The position numbers and the translations under genes were made by a program. Source: Planctomycetota bacterium (GTDB lineage: Bacteria; Planctomycetota; B15-G4). Taken from it: a stretch of DNA of 64,000 bases. The stretch is taken from the NCBI GenBank assembly GCA_021604805.1, contig BQJR01000001.1, forward strand, positions 987,102 through 1,051,101, given 5' to 3'. The notes beneath the pieces were generated by a model. It was not told where the DNA came from, did not search any database, and saw only the letters and a program-made list of their open reading frames with translations. This document shows positions 19,851 through 50,800 of the stretch, one piece after another. Within the stretch, counting starts at the first letter, position 1. Every line of letters starts with the position of its first letter.

Positions 19851-21698
19851 TCAGGGAGCGGCCTGATAACCGAACTCCACGTTGGCCGCAGCCGGCTCAG
19901 CGAGCTGGACCACGAAGTAGCCCGGGCCGCGCTCGGAGATCCAGGAGCGGCTGCCGGGGTCGCCGTAGAAGCTCAGCACCGTGAGGCTCGTGGGCGCCAG
20001 CTTGGCGTCGTAGACGATCACGCTCGTGTCGCCGGCACGCAGGCTCGCCGTTCCCGACGTCACCAGCGTGGTGCCCTGGATCGGGGCGCGCGCTGCGCCC
20101 GTCTCGAGCTTCACGAAGGCGACCAGGGTGGCGCTCATGCCATCCCAGTTCTCCAGCGCGATGCCGAGCACCGGGCCGCTGCCCGTGTGCTTGGCGGCGG
20201 TGCCGGGCAGGCTGCCCAGACCGAGCGCGTCGCCAGCGGCGATCATGCCACCCGAACCGTCGACGATCAGCGGCACGCGACCAGCGAGGGCCACGTAGAC
20301 GTGATCCTTACGAGCGGCCTCGAGCGCGATCCACTCTTGGCGCAACGTGGCGGCGACTTGCTTCTCACCGCGCACGAAGGCTTCGCGCGACGCGGCGAGC
20401 AGTTGCGGCTGCAGGCCGCCCATCACCGACTCGTCGGCCAGCTTGAGGCCCGGCTCCGTGGACACGATGCCGAGCACACCCGCCGAACCCTTGCGCGCAG
20501 CGATCACGTGCTCAGGACGGTTCGGGTCGACCGCCACGACCATGCCAGGACGCAAGGCCATGTCAGCCGTGGGGTAGTACTCGGCGAGGTCGAGACCGTT
20601 GCCGACCACTGCACCCGCGACGAGCAGGTCGGCCTGATCGTTGAGGCGCATGATGTCGTCGAAGAGGCCCGTGTTGCCGTCGTCGAACCACTGGAACCAG
20701 GCGCCCGGATCGTTGTCGTCGTTGTCGCGCACGAACTGCACGTCGAAGTTGCTGCGCAGGTTGAGCGCGCCGTTGATGTCGTTGCGCACTTCGCCGCCGC
20801 TGGTGATGAGCGCACCGAAGGCGCGCACGTTACCGGCACTGGCCGTCACCGAAGTGCCGGCTGCGGTGGCGGTGATCGACTCGACTTCGCCGCCGTCGAA
20901 GAGCTCACCTTGCTCGCCCTTGGGCCCTTGCGGACCCTCGGGACCCACGGGGCCAGGCGCGCCATCGGCGCCAGCAGGACCGTCTGCGCCAGCGGGGCCG
21001 ATCGCGCCATCAGCGCCAGCGGGACCCTGCGGGCCCATGGGACCTTCGGGGCCAGCAGCGCCGTCGGCACCTGCGGGGCCCTCGGGACCCTCGGGGCCTT
21101 CGAGCCCGGTGGTGTTGCCGAGCCAGTTCCCGTCGGCGTCGACCAACAGCTCACCGTTCAGGAAGATCTCCGACGTGTTCAGCGGCAGGGTCGTGATGCC
21201 CAAGCCGAGCGAGCGCGCCGGGGAGCGGGCGAAGAGCTTGTTGAACGTGCCGTTCTTCTTGAAGGTCGAGACCTGCGTGGTGAAGAACACGTCCTTGAGG
21301 AAGACCTCTTCGGGCAGGTCGCGGCTCGAGCCCAGGGAGACGTCGTAGGAACCGACAATGGCGTTCGGTTCGACGAACTGGCCCTCACCGGGAGAGCTCG
21401 CAGCCAGCGGGTCCTTGGCCTGCGCGCTCACGACGAACTGCTCGGTCCAAGCGGCGCCTTGCTCGTCGAGCACGGCATCCGTGGCGCCGATGTCGTTCCA
21501 CAACGCCACAGTGACGGTGAAGGTGCCGTTCGCGCCGCTCTTGAAGGGCTTGAACTTGGTTTTCTCACCTTCGCCCTTGGACGAAAACAGGGGCGTGTGC
21601 AAACGAATGACGGGGTCCGTCTGCGCGGTGCTCTCGGGAGCCGTGAAGCTCACCACCAGCGCACCCAGACAGAAGGACGCAACCCAACGCTTAAGCAT
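19851..21698 (-). CDS. Secreted collagen-like triple-helix repeat protein with a large non-collagenous C-terminal domain
   Basis: 615 aa from ATG 21698 (signal peptide [26 protein letters not shown]). An uninterrupted run of 22 G-X-Y triplets is followed by about 350 aa of C-terminal domain containing DLAEYYP...LRPGMVVAV. The track ORF extends to 21854. Confidence 0.8.
20907..21107 (-). repeat. Collagen G-X-Y repeat-coding tract (22 triplets)
   Basis: Encodes [67 protein letters not shown]. Coordinates were computed from residues 198-264 of the CDS. Confidence 0.85.
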
Positions 21699-21903
21699 GG
21701 TCTCGATTTCCAATGAGGACTCGGATCGCGAGAGGCGGCCGATCGGCGCACCCTCGGGGACTCGCTCCGTACCTACAAGGTATGCCATCCTTCGAAGGCC
21801 GTCAAAATGAGCGGCGCTGCTTTGTACGTGCGGCCCCCGCGCAGGTCGATTCACGGCCGTTTCCGCGCACCGCCTTCACCCGCTGCCTGAACACGGAGCG
21901 CTC

Positions 21904-34526: not shown

Positions 34527-34529
34527 TCT

Positions 34530-35141
34530 TTGAGCGACGAGAGCGCACCGACACCGCCGGGCGATTCGGCGACGGCTCCGGAGTCCCCCGCCGACGTCTC
34601 GGTCTTACTGCGACAGCTCGGCAACGACAACGCCGAGGAACGCCGCGCAGAGTTGTTCCAAGTCGTCTACGCGCAGCTCCACGATCTCGCGCGTCAGAAG
34701 ATGCGCAAGGAAGCGGCCGGGCACACGCTGCAAGCCACGGTGCTGGTGCACGAGGCGTGGATGCGACTGGGCGGCAACGACGATGTGGCGTGGAGCAACC
34801 GCGCGCACTTCTTCGGCGCGGCGGGCGAGGCCATGCGTCGCATCCTCGTGGATCACGCGCGCAAGAAAGCCAGCGCCAAGCGCGGTCGCGACTTCAAGCG
34901 TCTCCCGCTCGACGGCCTCGAGTTGTTCGAAGCCGACAACAGCGATCTCGTGCTCGCGGTCGACGACGCGCTCGCGCAACTCGAGACCTTCGACGAGCGT
35001 CTCGCCGAAGTCGTGCGCCTGCGCTTCTGGGCCGGCCTCGACGAACAAGAGACCGCTGAGTTGCTGGATCTCTCGCCGCGCACCGTGCGCCGCGACTGGA
35101 AGCTGGCGCGCGCTTGGCTCGCGCGCGAACTCGAGGTCTGA
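34530..35141 (+). CDS. ECF-type RNA polymerase sigma factor (Sigma70_ECF / TIGR02999-like, Ser/Thr-kinase-associated type)
   Basis: 203 aa. TTG start. LLRQLGNDNAEERRAELFQVVYAQLHDLARQKMRKEAAGHTLQATVLVHEAWMRL...WSNRAHFFGAAGEAMRRILVDHARKKAS is the hallmark of this ECF family. The region 4 HTH is TAELLDLSPRTVRRDWKLARAWL. Confidence 0.85.
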   Translation: MSDESAPTPPGDSATAPESPADVSVLLRQLGNDNAEERRAELFQVVYAQLHDLARQKMRKEAAGHTLQATVLVHEAWMRLGGNDDVAWSNRAHFFGAAGEAMRRILVDHARKKASAKRGRDFKRLPLDGLELFEADNSDLVLAVDDALAQLETFDERLAEVVRLRFWAGLDEQETAELLDLSPRTVRRDWKLARAWLARELEV

Positions 35142-42909: not shown

Positions 42910-45369
42910 TCAGCCGCGCAGCTCGCGGTAGGCGTCCTGGCTGTAGTCGTCCACCGCGACGGCGCGCGCGCGCGCCTTCTGCGCGTCGTTCCAGAGCATC
43001 GCTTCTTCGCCCTTGATCACGCCGAGGCTGAGCGCGCGGCTGGTGAGCGATTCACCTTCGCGCGGTTCATCGAGGCGGCCATCCTTGAGGGCTTCACGCA
43101 GGCGCTTGTCGATGCCGGCGGCGGCCACGATCTTGGCGCGCGCGAACTCGAGGAAGCCCAGACCGGGTTCGTCTTGCGGCGGCGTGTGCACCAGCGCGCT
43201 GTGACGCAGGCGCGTCTCGCTCTCGTCGAGCAAGGAACGCGCGACCTTGAGTGCGGTGCGATCGCTGGCCCCTTTCCGACGCGCGCCGAGTGGGAACAGC
43301 AGCGGGCGCAGCAACCACGCGGCCGGGCGCAACGGCAGGTTGTCGAGGATGCCGGCGAGCGCGTTGGCGATGTTCTGATCGGCTTCGGCGCACGCGTGTT
43401 GCATGAACGGCAGGTCGTCGGGGCGCTCGCCTTCGTCGAGGAAGCGCTTGAGCGTGGCGGAGCTCAGGTACATGCCGGCGAGCGCGTCGGCGAAACGGCC
43501 GGCGAGCATCTCCTTGCGCTTGAGGTCGCCGCCGAGCGTGGCCATGGCGGTGTCGGCGAGCACGGAGAAGGCCGCGCTCCAACGCGACAGGCGCGACAGT
43601 TCCTTGCGGGTGGCGCGTGAACCGCGCGCGCTGTTCGCCGGCAGGAAGGGCAACAGTCCGCGCGTGAAGGCGCGCACCACGTTGCACAACACGAAGTTCA
43701 CGTGACCGAAGAAGGCTTTGTCGAAGCGCACGAGGTCGTCGTCGTCGACAGCGGCCATCTCGTCTTGCACGAAGGGATGACAGCGGATCGCGCCCTGCCC
43801 GAAGATGATCATGGTGCGCGTGAGGATGTTCGCGCCTTCCACGGTGATGCCGATGGGCACAGCCATGTGTGCGCCGGCGAGCACGTTGGCCGGACCGCGC
43901 GAGATGCCCGCGCCGCCAGCGATGTCCATGGCGTCGTTGATCACGTCGCGCATGGTGTTCGTGCAGTAGGCCTTGGCCACGGCGGAGAGCACCGAGGGCT
44001 TCTCGCCCAGGTCCACGCTCGAACTCGTGAGCTTGCGCGTGGCGTCGATCATGTAGTTGCGCGCGCCGACTCGGCCGAGCGCTTCGCCCACGCCTTCGAA
44101 CTTGCCGATCGACAAGTTGAACTGCTTGCGCACGAGCGCGTAGGCGCCGCTGTAGCGCACGGCCACTTGGCAGCAGCCACTGCTGAGCGACGGCAACGAG
44201 ATCGCGCGGCCGGCGGCCAAACAGTCCATGAGCATGCGCCAACCTTGGCCGGCCATGGCGCGTCCGCCGATGAGCGCTTCGTCGAGCGGGACGAACACGT
44301 CGCGGCCCCAGCTGGGACCGTTGTGGAAGGGAATGCCGAGCGGGTCGTGGCGCGAGCCGATCGTGATGCCCGGCAGATCGGCGGGCACGAGCGCGCAGGT
44401 GATGCCGCGGTCTTCGTCGTCGCCGATGAGATGTTCGGGGTCGTAGAGCTTGAAGGCCAGGCCGATCACCGTGGCGATCGGACCGAGGGTGGTGTAGCGC
44501 TTGGCCCAGCTCAGGCGCAGGCCCAGCACCTCTTCGCCCTTCCACTGGCCTTTGCAGACCACGCCGCGCGCTTCCATGGCGGCCGCGTCGCTCCCGTTCT
44601 CAGGACCGGTGAGCGCGAAGCAGGGCATCTCTTCGCCCTTGGCGAGGCGCGGCAACCAGTAGCGACGCTGCTCGTCGGTGCCGTAGTGCAACAGGAGTTC
44701 GGCCGGGCCGAGCGAGTTGGGCACCATCACGGACACGGAGAGAGCGGTGCTGCGACTGCTCAGTTTGGTCACGACGGCCGAGTGCATCGCGGCCGAGAAG
44801 CCCAAGCCGCCGTACTCCTCGGGGATGATCATGCCGAAGAAGCCGTGGCGCTTGAGGTGCGCCCACACGTGCTCGGGGAGGTCGGCGGCTTGCACGGCGT
44901 CGTAGTCGCGCATGAGCGTGCAGGCTTGCTCGACGGGGCCGTCGAGGAAGGCGCGTTCACGCTCGCTGAGCGGAGGGAGCGGCGCGTCGAGCAGACGCTT
45001 CCACTTGGGCGCGCCGGAGAAGAGTTCGCCGTCCCACCACACGGTGCCGGCCTCGAGCGCCGCGCGTTCAGTGTCGGAGATCCGGGGCAGGATCGGCGCG
45101 AGGATGGTCTTCACGCGGGCGCTCAGGACGGTGCGTCGCCAAGCGGGAACACCGAAGAGCGCCGCGGCCGCGAGGAAGAGCACGAGCAGGAAGTACCACC
45201 AGCCGCCGGGGGCAGTCGAGGCAACGTCGCCCGCAGCACCGGCCGCGACCTGATCCCCGGACGTCGCGCAGGCCCAGAACAGGATCAATCCACCGACGAC
45301 CCAGGCCAGGTAGCCGCGCCCGAGGAAGGCCAGCACGATGGCGACGAGGAAGGCGAGGGCGGTGAGCAT
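42910..45369 (-). CDS. fadE: Large membrane-associated acyl-CoA dehydrogenase (FadE type)
   Basis: 819 aa. N-terminal TM helices, an acyl-CoA dehydrogenase core (GLGFSAAMHS..., FALTGPENGSDAAAMEA, GGRAMAGQGWRMLM) and the FadE-specific C-terminal extension. Confidence 0.9.
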   Translation of the reverse strand: MLTALAFLVAIVLAFLGRGYLAWVVGGLILFWACATSGDQVAAGAAGDVASTAPGGWWYFLLVLFLAAAALFGVPAWRRTVLSARVKTILAPILPRISDTERAALEAGTVWWDGELFSGAPKWKRLLDAPLPPLSERERAFLDGPVEQACTLMRDYDAVQAADLPEHVWAHLKRHGFFGMIIPEEYGGLGFSAAMHSAVVTKLSSRSTALSVSVMVPNSLGPAELLLHYGTDEQRRYWLPRLAKGEEMPCFALTGPENGSDAAAMEARGVVCKGQWKGEEVLGLRLSWAKRYTTLGPIATVIGLAFKLYDPEHLIGDDEDRGITCALVPADLPGITIGSRHDPLGIPFHNGPSWGRDVFVPLDEALIGGRAMAGQGWRMLMDCLAAGRAISLPSLSSGCCQVAVRYSGAYALVRKQFNLSIGKFEGVGEALGRVGARNYMIDATRKLTSSSVDLGEKPSVLSAVAKAYCTNTMRDVINDAMDIAGGAGISRGPANVLAGAHMAVPIGITVEGANILTRTMIIFGQGAIRCHPFVQDEMAAVDDDDLVRFDKAFFGHVNFVLCNVVRAFTRGLLPFLPANSARGSRATRKELSRLSRWSAAFSVLADTAMATLGGDLKRKEMLAGRFADALAGMYLSSATLKRFLDEGERPDDLPFMQHACAEADQNIANALAGILDNLPLRPAAWLLRPLLFPLGARRKGASDRTALKVARSLLDESETRLRHSALVHTPPQDEPGLGFLEFARAKIVAAAGIDKRLREALKDGRLDEPREGESLTSRALSLGVIKGEEAMLWNDAQKARARAVAVDDYSQDAYRELRG

Positions 45370-45589
45370 GATTCGAGTCCGAGTGGGCGGCCCGCGAGCT
45401 AGAGCGGGCAGTGAGATGAAACGAGATGTCAGCCGAGGAGGTGCTGGTGAGCCACGCCCCGAGGCCAGATCGCCTGGGGTGTGTGCCCGATGATGACTCG
45501 CGCGAAGGCCGGATGGAATGCGCCCTTATCGGCAGGATCCGGGGGGGACCTGGGGGTGATCGCGTCATGCCGCCAGCCACTCTCAGAAC

Positions 45590-45634
45590 CACCTCAACCT
45601 TGACTGCCCTGTCACCTCAACCTAGCGTTGAGGT
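45590..45634 (+). promoter_or_regulatory. Repeat cluster: two direct CACCTCAACCT copies 23 nt apart. The second copy forms an 8-bp palindrome with GTTGAGGT.
   Basis: Read directly from the sequence. Copy 1 is at 45590-45600 and copy 2 at 45613-45623. The inverted half-site is at 45627-45634 (ACCTCAAC-ctagc-GTTGAGGT). A further ACCTCAAC lies at 45757-45764. The cluster sits about 105 nt upstream of the 45741 start. Confidence 0.5.
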
Positions 45635-45740
45635 CGAGAAGGAAGGGTGCGGCGCTGCAGAGCGACGTTTGGGCGGGACCGCTGCGAGATGAGCGGGTGC
45701 GCTCTGTCTGCAGCGGCCGGGCAGCGAAGCGAGGCGTGTG

Positions 45741-46397
45741 ATGCAAGCCGAAGGGCTACCTCAACGAATCCAGCGTGCCACGGGTGACGAGCAGTTCGCA
45801 TCGCTCGACCTGTCGTCGACGGCAGAAGTGGATGCCGCCTGCTCCGCCCTGCTCACACGTCTCGACGAAACGAATGACTTCGAGTGCGCCGCGCTGATCG
45901 CGGACCTGGCTGGTGCGCCGCTCGCGGTGGCCGCGCAGGAACTCGCGAACGAACTCGGTTTGGGATTCTCGCCCGACGACCTGGTGGTTGCGGTGCTCGG
46001 CGAGCTCATGGCTGAGATGCCGCTGCAACCGCGACGCATCAAGCACTTCCTCGGGCACGCGAACGACCGCATGCGTGCAGCCGCCGAGCTAGCCGTAGAC
46101 CAGATCTCAAGCACCGACTGGCTCGCGAGCAACGCCTCATCCGACGGGCAAGCCGAGCCATGGATCGCGCAGCCGCCTAAGGCACAGCGGGATCGAATGT
46201 TTCAAATGTGTTTCCACCGACTGGCCGCCGACGACCGCCGCCTGCTGCGCCTCGTCGAGACAGAAAAGTTACCGCTCGAGAAGGCGGCGGATATCCTTGG
46301 GCTCTCGCGGACCAGCGCCGCAGCAGCCTTCGACACCGCGCGCCTGAACTTGCTGCACGCACTCGAAGAAGCCGCCGAGAACGGGAGGCCTTCATGA
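45741..46397 (+). CDS. Highly divergent sigma-70/ECF-like protein (only region 4 is recognisable)
   Basis: 218 aa. ATG 45741 lies 6 nt after GAGG, with a GTG at 45738. The C-terminus LAADDRRLLRLVETEKLPLEKAADILGLSRTSAAAAFDTARLNLLHALEE fits a sigma region 4 HTH. The N-terminal 150 aa are unassignable. GC3 is lower than in neighbouring genes. Confidence 0.6.
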   Translation: MQAEGLPQRIQRATGDEQFASLDLSSTAEVDAACSALLTRLDETNDFECAALIADLAGAPLAVAAQELANELGLGFSPDDLVVAVLGELMAEMPLQPRRIKHFLGHANDRMRAAAELAVDQISSTDWLASNASSDGQAEPWIAQPPKAQRDRMFQMCFHRLAADDRRLLRLVETEKLPLEKAADILGLSRTSAAAAFDTARLNLLHALEEAAENGRPS

Positions 46398-47221
46398 CCG
46401 ACCCAGAACATCTCCAAGTCGCTGTCGGCGAAGCACTCGAGTTCCTCGGGCGCGCAGGCAAGAGCGACGGCGCAGGAACGCAGCTGGCCGAGCGAGCAGT
46501 GAGTCGCGGCGACGCCAAGGTACGCAAGCAACTCGCGGACGCGGTTTACGACTTGGCGCGGCGGTGCGTGCAGGCGCATGAGAAGACGGGGACTGCTCTG
46601 CTGTTCGGGATGCAAGAGATGCAGTCGGCGCCGAAACTCACGCAGGCGATCGGCAGCCTCGCCAACCGCGCTGCGGTCGCGGATGGCGACGTGACCGTGA
46701 TTGCCCCAGCTGTAGACTCGGCTGAACCCCTGCAGCAGGCAATTGAGGTGCTCGAGCGCCTCGAAGGGCGAACCGATTCGTGGAAGGCCTTGGTCGCGTG
46801 GGAGGCCATGACGCGTCACGACTTTGAGACCGCACTGAGATGGAGCCTTGAGCTCTCAAAGAGCGCTGCGACGGAGATGGCACGGCAGGGAGGCGTCCAG
46901 TCCGCGGCCAAGGCTCTGATCGATCTCCACAGACTCCCCGAGGCAGAGCAGCTGCTCAAGGAGACCGCCGAGGCGCACGGCGAGAGCGACCTACTCCTCT
47001 TCAACCTTGCCTTCGTCCACGCCGCTCAGGGACACCTCGCGGAGTTCGAGCGCGTTGCATCGGCGTTTAGAGACTGCCCACGGCAAACTGCCTCAATGGA
47101 AACTTGGTCAGAGGCAATCGAGGACCAGCTCGAGGAGTTCTGCCGGGCGACGAACCTGAGCGCCAATGACATCCGACAACTCTTCGGTGTAGAGCAGCCC
47201 CACGGAGGAGCGGCTCCATGA
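46394..47221 (+). CDS. Cytoplasmic all-helical protein of unknown function
   Basis: 275 aa. ATG 46394 is preceded by GGGAGG and overlaps the upstream TGA (ATGA). The start was refined from track ORF 46208..47221. TPR-like helical character and no TM segment. Confidence 0.6.
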   Translation: MTDPEHLQVAVGEALEFLGRAGKSDGAGTQLAERAVSRGDAKVRKQLADAVYDLARRCVQAHEKTGTALLFGMQEMQSAPKLTQAIGSLANRAAVADGDVTVIAPAVDSAEPLQQAIEVLERLEGRTDSWKALVAWEAMTRHDFETALRWSLELSKSAATEMARQGGVQSAAKALIDLHRLPEAEQLLKETAEAHGESDLLLFNLAFVHAAQGHLAEFERVASAFRDCPRQTASMETWSEAIEDQLEEFCRATNLSANDIRQLFGVEQPHGGAAP

Positions 47222-47652
47222 ATGAGATCGGAACTGTAGTCCGCAGCAAAGGCAAGTTGGGCACAACTTGTCGATACGCGGCCGCCTGCTTGCTCTGTGG
47301 ATTCCTCTCCATCTCGGCGCTTGCCAACGGCGGGCTCGGTCTTCTCCCGCCACGCCAGACGCCGAGCAGCCCTGGGGTCAAAGACCCGGGCAATGATCAC
47401 GCACATGGCCAAGGTGGCATCATTGTGGAGATGCGCCCGTCTTACAGCCCCGTCGTTGTCGGGACTGTGGAGACACGCCGAGTCGTCGCGCGCGACGCGC
47501 GTGGGCGGATCGTCGCGATCGGCAGCATCGGCAGCGCCAGACAAACAGTGCTCCGCGTTCCGCGCGGAGGCGTGGTGCGACTGCAGATCGAAGGCGTGCA
47601 CAGTTCCGCGATCGTTCGAGAAGGCGCTCGTGTCGTCGTGACGCTCCGGTAG
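47218..47652 (+). CDS. Small exported or membrane-anchored protein of unknown function
   Basis: 144 aa. Its ATG overlaps the upstream TGA (ATGA). An N-terminal hydrophobic segment (AAACLLCGFLSISALANG) is followed by a Pro-rich linker and a beta-rich C-terminus. It has the most A/T-rich third codon positions that I noticed in the window. Confidence 0.55.
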   Translation: MNEIGTVVRSKGKLGTTCRYAAACLLCGFLSISALANGGLGLLPPRQTPSSPGVKDPGNDHAHGQGGIIVEMRPSYSPVVVGTVETRRVVARDARGRIVAIGSIGSARQTVLRVPRGGVVRLQIEGVHSSAIVREGARVVVTLR

Positions 47653-47839
47653 GAGCTCATCAACATCGAGCTGTCTACACGACTCCGCATCGCTCATGGA
47701 GCAGCGGTGGGGCGACTCCGTTCAGGACGTCACTGACGCAGACGAGACGCAGGCTCGTGAGACTCCCGCTCGCGGCGAGAGCGCACGGGCGCGCAGGGTC
47801 GTCGCACACCGCGCCATCTCAGCTGCACGCGCCACGCAC

Positions 47840-50800
47840 TCACTCCACCACCACCCGGCATTCTGCGCCGTGGCCGAAGGTTTCCGGCGTGTACATTTCC
47901 TCGGCGAACAGCGGGGGCAGAACGTACTCGCCGGGCGCGGTCGCGCGCGCGACGTAGCTGTACTCGTGGATGCCGGCGGGCAGTGAGCTGGCGAAGACCT
48001 CCACGCGTTCGTCGCGCAGGTTCGCGTGCTCGTACCAGCGCCATGACCACCACCACGGGCGGCGCAGCTTGTGGGCGACGGGCTCCACGCTCGCGCTCAC
48101 GGGCAGGTCGGGGTTCAGGACCTCGAGGCCCGAAGGCAGCGCGTCCACCAAAGCCACGTGATGACGCGCCGACTCGGCGAGCAGCTCCAGGTGCACGCGC
48201 ACGCTGGCGCCGCGGCGGATCACCCACGTGCCGTCGTCGCGGCGGCGCACGTCGCTGGGGTCATCGATCGCTTCGTAGCGACGCGACACTTCGAAGCCGG
48301 CGTCGCGCGCGGCGACGCGCTCGTGGGCACCCGGCGCGTAACGCAGCCCGACCCGCCACCACATCCGCCCCACGCCTTCGCGTTGCAAGGTCACGTTCGT
48401 GTCGCGCTCCGCAACGAGCTCCGCAAGCTGCGTCATCGGGAGCGACAAGCGCTCGCTGCGGGTCTCGCGGCCGGCGAACTCCTCGCTCATCAGACCGGTG
48501 TCGCCGAGCCAAGCGCGCGCCGTGAAACTGGGCAGCTCCGACTCGAGCGCGGCGAAGGCCGCCTGCAGACCGAGCAACACGAAGAGGTCTTCCTGCGTGG
48601 ACCCCCAGGCGCCGCGACGACGATGCGCGAGCAATCCCTTCACCACCTTCTCGATGAGCGGGTTCTTCGGGTCGACCGTGATCAGCGCTTCGAGCAACAA
48701 GCCGTCCGTGCGGCGCTCGCCGTGCAACAAGACCGCGCGCTCGTCGCTTTCATAGCGGGAGACGAAGCGCGCCTCGCTGGCCGTCTCGATCGCGCGATCG
48801 TTGACCACCCTGAGCACGTCGTCGCAGAGTTCCTCGAGCGCGCCGTCGGCGTGCAGGATCGGGAGCGTCCACGCCAAGACTTCCAGGGGGAGCTCATCCA
48901 GCGGACGCGCGTGCAGCAAGTCGAGCAGGTCGCCGCGCAGCGTGTGGCCCGCACGCCAGCGGGTGTTGAGCGCGGAGGCGCGGATCACGTAAGCGGCCTC
49001 GGTGCTGAGACGTTCGTGCTCGACCGCCAGGCGGAGCTCGCCGGGCAGCGTCTTCTGCAAGAAGTCGAGCGCCTTGCTGAGCACGCGCGCGGGCACGTCG
49101 CGGCCGGCGTCGGCGCAGCGCTGCAACACGTGCGCCACGTGCGCGCTCAGGTAGAGCCTGCGCCAGGGAGCGCCCGCGTAGTCGGAGTCGGGCCAGAAGC
49201 GGAACATGCCGTTGCGCTCCTGCGCCTGGCCGAGCTTCTCCATGTCGGCTTCGAAGGAGGCGGCGCGCGCGTCGGCGTCGGGCAACCCCGGCGCCTCGAA
49301 GGCTTCGAGCACGTCTTGCAAGGCCACCAGGGCGAGCTGCCGCGAGGCGCGCTGCTCGGTGCAGGCGTACGGATAGGTCGAGAGGTTCACCACGGCGTCG
49401 GTGAGCGAGGCGAAGGCGGTGGACGCCACGTCGACACGTAGCTCCCCCACTTCGGGGCGTGCGTCGCTCGGCACACGTAAGGGGATCTGCGTGGCCGCGT
49501 CGCTGTCGGAGTTCCCGTAGATCGCGAAGGACTCGAGCGTGGTCGGACGTTCCACCACGAGCGAGGTCGAGAGCGCATCGTGGCGCGACGGGTCCTTCGC
49601 GTCGGTCAACACGAACAGCAAGCGCGCCACCCCCGAGCGCGGCGCGCTCACCGGCAGCAACAACTCGACGCGATCGTGCGCAGGTACCGTCAACTTGCGA
49701 CCGCGCGCCTCCGCGCTCAACTCCAGCACGCTCGCCTCCAGCGCGAGTTGCACCTCGGCGGCGCTGTCACCATCGTTGTGCAACACCACGGGCAGCGCAG
49801 CGCGATCACCCTGGCGGAGTTGACGCGGCAAGCTCGCGCGCACACGCAGCGGCTTGCTGCTTCGCAAGCTCGACTCCCCAAAGCCGAAGCGCGAACCGCG
49901 ATCAGCAGCCACGACCATCACGCGCCAACGCGTGAGCCGATCGGGCAGGCTGACCTCGGCGCGCACGCAACCGTTCTTGTCCGTGCGCAGGGCGGGCAAG
50001 AAGGCGGCGAGCGGCGCGAGGTTCTCGCGCACGCCGATCGCGGGAGCGTTGTCCGACCCCGCCGCGCTCTGCTTGGGCGCCGCGGGCGGTGCCGAAGCGC
50101 GCGCCACGCTGCCACCACCTCCTAGGTAACCGAGGGCAGCCAGCTCGGTCCTCACGCTGTCGTCGGCTGAGTATCGCAGCGAGTTCGAGCCTTCATCGGG
50201 CGCGAAGCTCTCGTCCTCGTGATCACCGACCGTGAGCAACAGCACCTCGTGCCCTGGCGCGGCGAGTCGGTCGCGTGCGGACTCGTCGAGCTCGAGCAGC
50301 TGCACGAAGCGTCGCAACCACACGCTTTCGATGCCTGCATCACGCGCCGGGTAGAACGAAGGCAGCGGATCGCGGAAGTCGTAGCCGCCCGCGACGTGCA
50401 CCGATTCGTCGACCACGATGAGCGCCACGTTCGCGTCGCTGAGCGCCTTGCCCTCGTTGTCGCTCACACAGACCTGCACGCCCACGGTGGCGCCGGGCTG
50501 TGCGACCGACGACTCGGGCGCGACCTCGACGCTCAACCTGCGAGCGTCGATCGACACAGGCAACTCGAGCTCCGCCACGGCGTAAGCAGGTTGTGGCGGC
50601 GCGTGATCCCGCGCCTTGCCCGCACTGTCGACGCGCGGGCGTTGACCCACCAGGCCCAGCGAGAGATGCAGCGTGGGGAGATGTGCGTCGAGCAAGGGCA
50701 CTTCGAGCACGGCGCTGCCGCCTTCCAGCGCGATCACTTCGGTGCCGAGCCGACCCGAACGGCCGAGGCTCAACTGTAAGGTGCCGCGTTCGAAGGGCGC

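Follow-up and report, generated by a model that had tools for sequence, protein, structure and literature searches.

A conserved Planctomycetota gene cassette encoding a predicted divergent ECF-type sigma factor, a soluble partner protein and a small secreted protein

Three plus-strand genes of the metagenome-assembled genome (MAG) 'Planctomycetota bacterium DHS20C15' are considered here. They lie between fadE and an alpha-2-macroglobulin (A2M) gene, in a 64-kb stretch of DNA (the window) that sits within a 1.44-Mb contig, and their products, which we call the proteins of genes 1, 2 and 3, are deposited as hypothetical proteins (Table 1). The cassette is a conserved, uncharacterised Planctomycetota module that combines a predicted extracytoplasmic function (ECF) sigma factor with a novel soluble regulator, and a small protein with a signal peptide is encoded directly behind the pair. 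ECF sigma factors belong to the principal signalling systems of bacteria, and the Planctomycetota are rich in poorly understood ones.

An original prediction, made from the DNA alone, had described three open reading frames (ORFs) chained by ATGA start/stop overlaps and belonging to no assignable family. The same three frames were found, together with both overlaps (gene 1/gene 2 at 46394-46397 and gene 2/gene 3 at 47218-47221), and in Pfam and NCBIfam all three proteins stay below the curated family thresholds. Shine-Dalgarno (SD) sequences had been credited to the first two genes only; they are present before gene 1 (Table 1) and gene 2 (GGGAGG, 5-nt spacer), but gene 3 is also preceded by an SD-like sequence (GGAGGAG, 7-nt spacer). 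Compared with the orthologues in a related locus, L002, the ratio of nonsynonymous to synonymous divergence (dN/dS) is 0.31 for gene 1, 0.37 for gene 2 and 0.44 for gene 3, indicating purifying selection, and all three are therefore real genes. The synonymous divergence itself (dS 0.8-1.3) is higher than that of the flanking genes (0.3-0.65).

The sigma factor and its partner

Gene 1 is predicted, from its modeled structure and from family profiles, to encode a sigma-70 protein of the ECF type (group IV) that is complete but very divergent, with sigma2 and sigma4 domains. The AlphaFold2 (AF2) model, with a predicted local distance difference test score (pLDDT) of 68, is all-helical and consists of two bundles and a low-confidence or disordered linker (residues 121-145), the sigma2-like part containing helices at residues 27-44, 47-72, 78-92 and 100-131. 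Foldseek searches with this model returned essentially only sigma-70-family structures, with a probability of about 1 and 160-190 aligned columns for the ECF proteins; most matches were ECF sigma factors (SigL, SigW, CnrH, AlgU, RpoE, SigK and SigH), accompanied by some group 1-3 sigma factors. The C-terminal bundle superposes on the sigma4 domain of SigL (3hug_K) with a template modeling (TM) score of 0.89 and a root-mean-square deviation of 0.9 Å. Word-seeded homologue searches with the three proteins found the L002 orthologues only, and the gene 1 family could be gathered only by searching 1.84 billion representatives exhaustively with HMMER (E <= 1e-3); it comprises 52 relatives, mostly of 210-240 aa and matching end to end. 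When 45 aligned relatives were compared with Pfam, Sigma70_r4_2 (PF08281) matched 40 (best E 1.9e-12), Sigma70_r4 matched 25 and Sigma70_r2 (PF04542) matched seven, and the NCBIfam ECF superfamily model TIGR02937 matched 32 (best E 4.7e-20). No match to sigma3 (PF04539) was found in gene 1 or in any of the 45, and the 218-aa protein has the ECF architecture, without sigma3 and with a short linker between sigma2 and sigma4. A family profile built from the 45 relatives (A5) matched AlgU (7e-11), RpoE (6e-9), SigH (3e-7), SigE (2e-6) and SigK (8e-5) in the PDB, and the alignments are collinear over both domains (SigK 41-217, Mycobacterium tuberculosis SigE 59-222). The original prediction had recognised a sigma-like protein that kept only a region 4-like helix-turn-helix (HTH) at its C-terminus, the N-terminal 150 residues fitting no region 2. 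The HTH is borne out by sub-threshold Pfam matches, by the relatives and by the SigL superposition; the N-terminal region, which is conserved in the L002 orthologue, is a sigma2 domain at the level of fold and family profile.

The relatives of gene 1 that carry an organism name are all from Planctomycetota, and the labels given to them by PGAP and IMG are mixed, some being 'sigma-70 family' or 'sigma24 family' and others 'hypothetical'. The cassette had been called undescribed, which is plausible for genes 2 and 3; some relatives of gene 1 already bear sigma-70 or sigma-24 labels. Casas-Pastor et al. based their ECF classification on NCBI data from February 2017 and dropped candidates without Pfam matches to sigma2 and sigma4 (PMC7826278). 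The ECF Hub entry filter requires the generic ECF hidden Markov model (HMM), PF04542 and either PF04545 or PF08281 (PMC7826278), and gene 1 does not pass it on the Pfam criteria; against TIGR02937 it scores 19.7 bits, the cut-off being 42.9. On account of this filter and the date of the data, we infer that the gene 1 clade probably lies outside the existing ECF classification. None of the NCBIfam subfamily models dominates the family. Two further observations concern the CFHRL motif that opens sigma4 (C157-H159; 46209-46217): it is conserved widely across the gene 1 family, and the sigma cysteine of the motif is absent from some of the fused relatives described below.

Gene 2 is the dedicated cognate partner of the gene 1 sigma factor, as seen from synteny and from gene fusion. 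A gene 2 homologue lies directly 3' of the gene 1 homologue, with an overlap of 4-11 nt, in the window, L002, L003, L004, L005/L020, L011 and L026, that is, in every unfused locus that could be read. The closest homologue, and the sole close one, is the L002 orthologue (49% identity), but the gene 2 family profile (A8) detects the L026 copy, which was not used in building it, at 1.4e-45. Seven of the 52 relatives of gene 1 are long (446-576 aa), and in a database of 56 sequences the C-terminal extension of six of these matches the gene 2 profile (A2) nearly end to end (P0014 6e-10, P0033 9e-10, P0038 9e-9, P0021 6e-8, P0039 6e-6 and P0026 4e-3); the match of the seventh, P0043, is not significant by itself. 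The six fused extensions align coherently with the free gene 2 proteins. This split and fused, 'Rosetta stone' relationship is the strongest evidence that the proteins of genes 1 and 2 cooperate physically; a putative direct binding of the two has its support in genetic linkage and fusion only.

What kind of protein is the partner? In line with its earlier description as a soluble, all-helical protein, gene 2 is helical in its low-confidence AF2 model and has no membrane-type hydrophobic span (maximum KD19 1.13). The family (A8) shares a Y-x-x-A-R-x-C motif with an invariant Cys58 (46565-46567), and LEG[ST], FN and W238 are also conserved. In the C-terminal half, at profile positions of about 130-245, the A8 profile matches consensus tetratricopeptide repeat (TPR) and pentatricopeptide repeat proteins. 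The best whole-sequence E-value for TPR proteins (positions of about 140-215) is 1e-30, which is inflated by the repetitiveness of the targets, the single-stretch values being about 0.01-0.1. At least two 34-residue repeats are recognised in the A8 profile, and one gene 2 relative matches TPR_12 at 4.4e-7; on its own the window protein stays below threshold (TPR_19, E 0.035), and its two-sequence profile found only one TPR or pentatricopeptide hairpin in the PDB. Just N-terminal of the conserved core, the L011 gene 2 protein, P0014 and P0039 carry HLARCAPC, HLIACDAC and HLVECDAC, respectively. This HLxxCxxC pattern we take to correspond to the zinc-binding anti-sigma (ZAS) consensus known from RsrA and ChrR. 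The original prediction had noted the absence of a ZAS motif from gene 2, rightly for the window protein, yet the motif is present at the equivalent place in these three homologues, which strengthens the analogy with anti-sigma factors. Together, the motif and the invariant cysteine suggest that gene 2 is descended from an inhibitory anti-sigma factor, perhaps a thiol- or metal-sensitive one, and a redox or metal site joining C157-H159 of gene 1 to C58 of gene 2 is conceivable from these residues.

The layout of the cassette recurs in nine loci from Planctomycetota MAGs, among them a second cassette in the DHS20C15 genome (L026). A search for related loci with the A1 profile found nothing, and a degenerate DNA pattern for CFHRLDxxxRRxLR gave 23 matches, mostly due to chance, among which L003, L004, L005, L011 and L020 are true family loci. 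The gene order in L002 is glyoxalase, hypothetical, Rieske, fadE, gene 1, gene 2, gene 3, with identities of 97% for the Rieske protein, 81% for FadE and 78% for the glyoxalase, compared with 66%, 49% and 47% for genes 1, 2 and 3. The gene 3' of the cassette in L002 is not A2M. Adjacency to fadE is thus kept in L002 and adjacency to A2M is not, and at distant loci the neighbours are different again; over long times the module changes its neighbours and duplicates. In L026 (5001-10088; Logan DRR328265_5696), gene 1' (DHS20C15_19480) and gene 2' are followed by five tandem gene 3-like ORFs, which have PPR and (L)RPxxSPVVVG sequence motifs in common.

The secreted protein and the promoter region

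The export of gene 3 that had been proposed agrees with its signal-peptide-like N-terminus, in which a hydrophobic segment (residues 20-38) ends in ...SISALA/NGG. Next come a Gly/Pro-rich linker containing an LLPPRQTP (PPR) motif and a Val/Gly/Arg-rich, beta-rich domain of about 70 aa, which, guessing from its sequence pattern, may be a beta sandwich of the Ig-like or transthyretin-like kind. In each of the nine loci a signal-peptide protein of this build is encoded 3' of gene 2, its gene either overlapping gene 2 by 4 nt or starting a few nucleotides after it. The copies are in tandem and number from one to five per locus: two in L002 (an orthologue and a paralogue of gene 3), L004 and L028, and five in L026. 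Homology to gene 3 is firm for the L002 copies and for two of the L026 paralogues, which the gene 3 profile (A9) matched (2e-6 and 2e-5) independently of how the profile was built. The family profile gave chance-level matches only against Pfam and the PDB, and the two-sequence profile found nothing in the PDB. The second copy in L028 is a recent tandem duplication of 300 nt with 87% identity. L028 (128-2734) is also the locus where a fused sigma-ZAS-gene 2 gene lies directly 3' of genes like those of a diversity-generating retroelement (HRDC, bAvd and reverse transcriptase). A link between such an element and gene 3 was considered and rejected, as the locus has no template/variable (TR/VR) repeat, only the tandem duplication.

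Gene 3 is most likely the secreted output of the module rather than its sensor. The original prediction had likened the layout to a sigma, anti-sigma and sensor module. The sensor role is not supported: gene 2 lacks a membrane span by which it could be connected to an exported protein, and gene 3 behaves as a duplicating, fast-evolving secreted product.

The 371-bp spacer between fadE and gene 1 contains a promoter-like TTGACT-N17-TAGCGT sequence. Corresponding sites lie 5' of the gene 1 homologues in L002 (TTGACT-N17-TAGCTT), L003 (TTGACG-N17-TAGCAT), L004 (TTGACG-N17-TATTAT) and L026 (TTGACG-N17-TAGCGT), so that a bipartite TTGAC[T/G]-N17-TAnnnT motif is common to five loci, the window included. 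The relaxed pattern TTGACK-N17-TAnnnT occurs twice in the window, compared with 0.05 expected occurrences; the sole other match (21777-21805, minus strand, TTGACGGCCTTCGAAGGATGGCATACCTT) is at the 5' end of a long minus-strand ORF (19851-21875). The cassette site looks like a housekeeping sigma-70 promoter, judged by its sequence, and it may instead be the gene 1 family's own target. The cassette is probably one operon transcribed from this site. A terminator scan and an inverted-repeat search 3' of gene 3 found no plus-strand terminator. A further conserved feature of the spacer is a block of about 50 nt at 45488-45537 (CCGATGATGACTCGCG..CGGATGGAATGCGCCCTTATCGGCAGG), which is nearly identical in L002, the rest of the spacer being much less conserved. 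It may serve fadE as promoter or operator, or it may regulate the divergent pair.

Table 1. Features of the cassette and its immediate neighbours in the window
Feature	Position	Strand	Basis or remark
fadE, upstream neighbour	42910-45369	-	
Promoter-like TTGACT-N17-TAGCGT, about 110 nt 5' of gene 1	45600-45628	+	Conserved in relatives
SD-like GAGG, 6-nt spacer to the gene 1 ATG	45731-45734	+	Read from the sequence
Gene 1, predicted divergent ECF-type sigma factor, 218 aa (DHS20C15_08180)	45741-46397	+	Structure, profile, relatives
Gene 1, sigma2-like helical domain, residues about 27-131	45819-46133	+	AF2 helices, structural and profile alignments
Gene 1, sigma4 domain with CFHRL motif and HTH, residues about 147-214	46179-46382	+	Sub-threshold Pfam matches, SigL superposition
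Gene 2, soluble helical sigma partner, 275 aa (DHS20C15_08190)	46394-47221	+	Coupling, synteny, fusion
Gene 2, TPR-like C-terminal half, residues about 130-245	46781-47128	+	A8 profile, sub-threshold Pfam matches
Gene 3, small secreted protein, 144 aa (DHS20C15_08200)	47218-47652	+	ATGA overlap, signal peptide, paralogues
A2M gene, downstream neighbour	ends at 47840	-	

Regulation and relation to known systems

How might the three products act together? The reading that we favour, and hold to be reasonably probable, is that the operon yields an ECF-type sigma factor, a soluble regulator made, by translational coupling, in stoichiometric amounts, and a secreted product. Transcription would start from the conserved TTGACT-N17-TAGCGT site, and translation of the three genes would be coupled. 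Gene 2 would be a cytoplasmic regulator whose N-terminal helices, in the region of the Y-x-x-A-R-x-C motif, probably bind the sigma factor, its TPR-like half would receive a cytoplasmic input, and the whole protein could be viewed as the free-standing counterpart of the C-terminal regulatory extension that is fused to the sigma factor in some relatives. Since homologues carry the ZAS HxxxCxxC motif, gene 2 would most likely act as a soluble anti-sigma factor. Gene 3 would be a small, Sec-exported protein that is co-produced with the sigma/regulator pair.

Several results speak against this reading or against parts of it. Taken alone, gene 1 matches PF08281 (E 0.004, residues 153-194) and PF04545 (E 0.007) below the gathering thresholds and does not match PF04542 in Pfam, and in the PDB its two-sequence profile did not retrieve any sigma factor. 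Most of the basic residues have been lost from the sigma4 recognition helix of the window subclade, discussed below, and binding to a -35 element is therefore uncertain. A common bipartite promoter of the ECF type, sought 5' of the free-standing gene 3 paralogues, did not rise above shuffled controls. Gene 2 of the window keeps H6 of the HxxxCxxC motif, the cysteines being gone (HLQVAVGEAL); no anti-sigma domain of Pfam or NCBIfam (zf-HC2, RskA and others) matched it or 12 members of its family; and its AF2 model, all-helical with a pLDDT of 50.5, is too low in confidence for use in a fold search. As to gene 3, its homology to the L003, L004 and L011 copies is weak (hhalign E 0.006 over the C-terminal 60 residues), and the L027 and L028 equivalents are linked to it by position and architecture only. 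Finally, in ECF42 sigma factors the fused TPR extension is essential for activity rather than inhibitory, only its proximal part being predicted to contact sigma4 (PMC8999054). Regulation by gene 2 may accordingly be of either sign.

The main rival takes up this last point and makes gene 2 a positive co-factor: a detached, ECF42-like TPR extension that the sigma factor needs, and whose TPR part recruits another protein. We regard this as possible but unlikely. It would agree with the TPR-like nature of the C-terminal half of gene 2, with the essential role of the ECF42 extension (PMC8999054), with the fusion of the gene 2 domain to sigma4 in at least six relatives, four of which have no ZAS segment, and with the absence of a ZAS-equivalent segment from the short gene 2 forms of L003, L004 and L020. 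The ZAS motifs of three homologues point instead to an inhibitory anti-sigma ancestry, no NCBIfam subfamily model prevails in the gene 1 family, and the YCII/DGPF neighbour typical of ECF42 is missing from the gene lists of five loci.

A second rival concerns the sigma factor itself. Residues 189-205 of gene 1 (46305-46355), the sigma4 recognition helix, read LSRTSAAAAFDTARLNL and are depleted in basic residues. In the window and its near relatives the helix has charges of +2/-1, +1/-5 and +2/-5 (neutral to acidic, often net acidic), compared with the canonical basic helix of distant family members (LPRGQVGMILKRARERL, +5/-1). The gene 1 subclade may thus no longer recognise promoters and may have turned into a sigma-like decoy or adaptor, acting as the PhyR sigma-like domain does and titrating gene 2 or some other partner. 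The divergence of sigma2 beyond the reach of Pfam, the weak matches to PhyR sigma-like models and an operon promoter of the housekeeping type, with no recognisable autoregulated promoter of the ECF type, would all be consistent with such a role. However, gene 1 has no receiver domain or other switch, the two-domain ECF architecture and its linker are retained under purifying selection, atypical -35 recognition exists in some ECF groups, and the PhyR matches are weaker than the generic ECF matches. We consider this decoy role improbable. Just as improbable is the proposal, drawn from the lost basic residues and the conserved housekeeping-type promoter, that genes 1 and 2 are no classical sigma/anti-sigma switch but a new kind of adaptor pair derived from a sigma factor. 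The pair might be joined by a redox or metal link of Cys/His type (CFHRL and the invariant cysteine), and it would be dedicated to the Planctomycetota-specific, rapidly duplicating and diverging small secreted proteins of the gene 3 type.

Set among known systems, the module falls between ECF42, the ZAS pairs of the SigR-RsrA type and the ECF48/52/53 fusions, and it lacks defining features of each. ECF42 (Sven_0747 of S. venezuelae and ECF-10 of P. putida, with a C-terminal TPR extension of about 200 aa) likewise combines an ECF core with a TPR-containing module, here of about 250 aa, without an anti-sigma factor bound to the membrane, and in at least six of the 52 relatives the module is C-terminal to sigma4. 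Unlike in ECF42, the TPR module of the window and of most relatives is a separate, translationally coupled gene, no YCII/DGPF gene is found among the called genes of L001, L002, L026, L027 and L028, and there is a Y-x-x-A-R-x-C region, an optional ZAS segment and always an attached gene 3. The resemblance to SigR-RsrA lies in a soluble cytoplasmic partner encoded directly 3' of the sigma gene and in the N-terminal HLxxCxxC of gene 2 homologues. However, gene 2 of the window has lost both cysteines, the short forms do not have the segment, there is no zf-HC2 match, and gene 2 is about 2.5 times larger than RsrA and has a TPR-like domain. The order of sigma2, sigma4, ZAS motif and further domain in P0014 and P0039 is reminiscent of the ECF48/52/53 ZAS fusions (SCO4117), with the same logic of fusing sigma and anti-sigma (PMC8999054). 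The actinobacterial extensions of those groups run into transmembrane and extracytoplasmic domains and are thought to be proteolytically released, whereas the present one is soluble and TPR-like, with the parts split over distinct genes in the window. With PhyR/NepR/EcfG the cassette has in common a degenerate sigma-like fold, a small helical partner and weak PhyR-model matches, but it has no receiver domain, no short NepR-like anti-sigma factor and no second, bona fide EcfG adjoining it, and the generic ECF matches are stronger.

The cassette does not overturn current understanding; its value lies in a gain in annotation and in a testable system of split and fused regulators. It adds an ECF-like sigma clade so diverged that Pfam filters for sigma2 and sigma4 would miss members, an unnamed soluble partner domain whose free and fused forms provide a 'Rosetta stone' for the interconversion of C-terminal extensions and anti-sigma factors, and a family of small secreted proteins, likewise unnamed, that accompanies the sigma/partner pair in every case. 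Its stably low GC content at third codon positions (GC3) in a high-GC genome also cautions against reading such dips as horizontal transfer.

Composition, origin and genomic setting

The lower GC and GC3 content that had been noted by eye is real, and the region is an outlier within the window. The GC content of the cassette region is 0.648, compared with 0.686 for the window, and ranks 19th lowest among 618 sliding windows of the same size; GC3 is 0.749, 0.736 and 0.703 in genes 1, 2 and 3, compared with 0.889 in fadE, 0.857 in A2M and 0.871 and 0.902 in the other two of the four nearest genes. The only other stretch of equally low GC, at 58-62 kb, has a GC3 of 0.89-0.94, which makes the cassette the clearest GC3 outlier among the genes of the window. 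A regulatory function does not explain the deficit, since the canonical ECF sigma gene elsewhere in the window (34527-35138) has a GC3 of 0.84. That plus-strand gene is a Planctomycete-type ECF sigma factor (PF07638 Sigma70_ECF, E 1.2e-51) with a weak match to the gene 1 family profile (4e-5).

The deficit recurs in most of the cassettes that were compared. In L002 the cassette genes have GC3 values of 0.87, 0.82, 0.72 and 0.74 and the neighbours 0.92-0.97, and in L026, in the same genome as the window, the values are 0.63-0.79 and 0.87-0.89, respectively. The cassettes of L003, L004 and L011 are also below their neighbours, that of L028 is lower in part and that of L027 just marginally lower. 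Low GC3 is a stable, long-standing property of a fast-evolving gene family, and not a mark of recent import; we infer that weak codon selection or low expression lies behind it. The original prediction had proposed horizontal acquisition, that is, a recently acquired foreign island with the base composition of its donor. Beyond the GC3 contrast with the neighbouring genes, this very improbable origin could appeal to the different neighbours at distant loci, which imply that the module moves on evolutionary time scales, and to the absence of A2M downstream in L002, but it is already largely refuted by the conserved adjacency to fadE in L002, by the low GC3 in L002, L003, L004, L011, L026 and L028, by the restriction of the named relatives to Planctomycetota, and by the absence of mobility hallmarks (no tRNA in the window, no integrase in its ORF list and no direct repeats flanking the cassette). 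A genomic island would show such hallmarks at its borders and be absent from relatives, and here the cassette occupies the same place in L002.

The cassette matched no defence system in PADLOC, and an Rfam scan of 45200-47900 found no credible RNA. A 96-aa plus-strand ORF (47696-47986), which the Logan assembly lists as a gene, runs antisense over the 3' end of A2M and is probably spurious. In L027 (6337-7544), a fused sigma-gene 2 gene and a gene for a 255-aa secreted protein are followed by a second sigma gene of the same family (279 aa, A5 3e-78), which is overlapped by an acidic 123-aa ORF, giving this locus a two-sigma arrangement.

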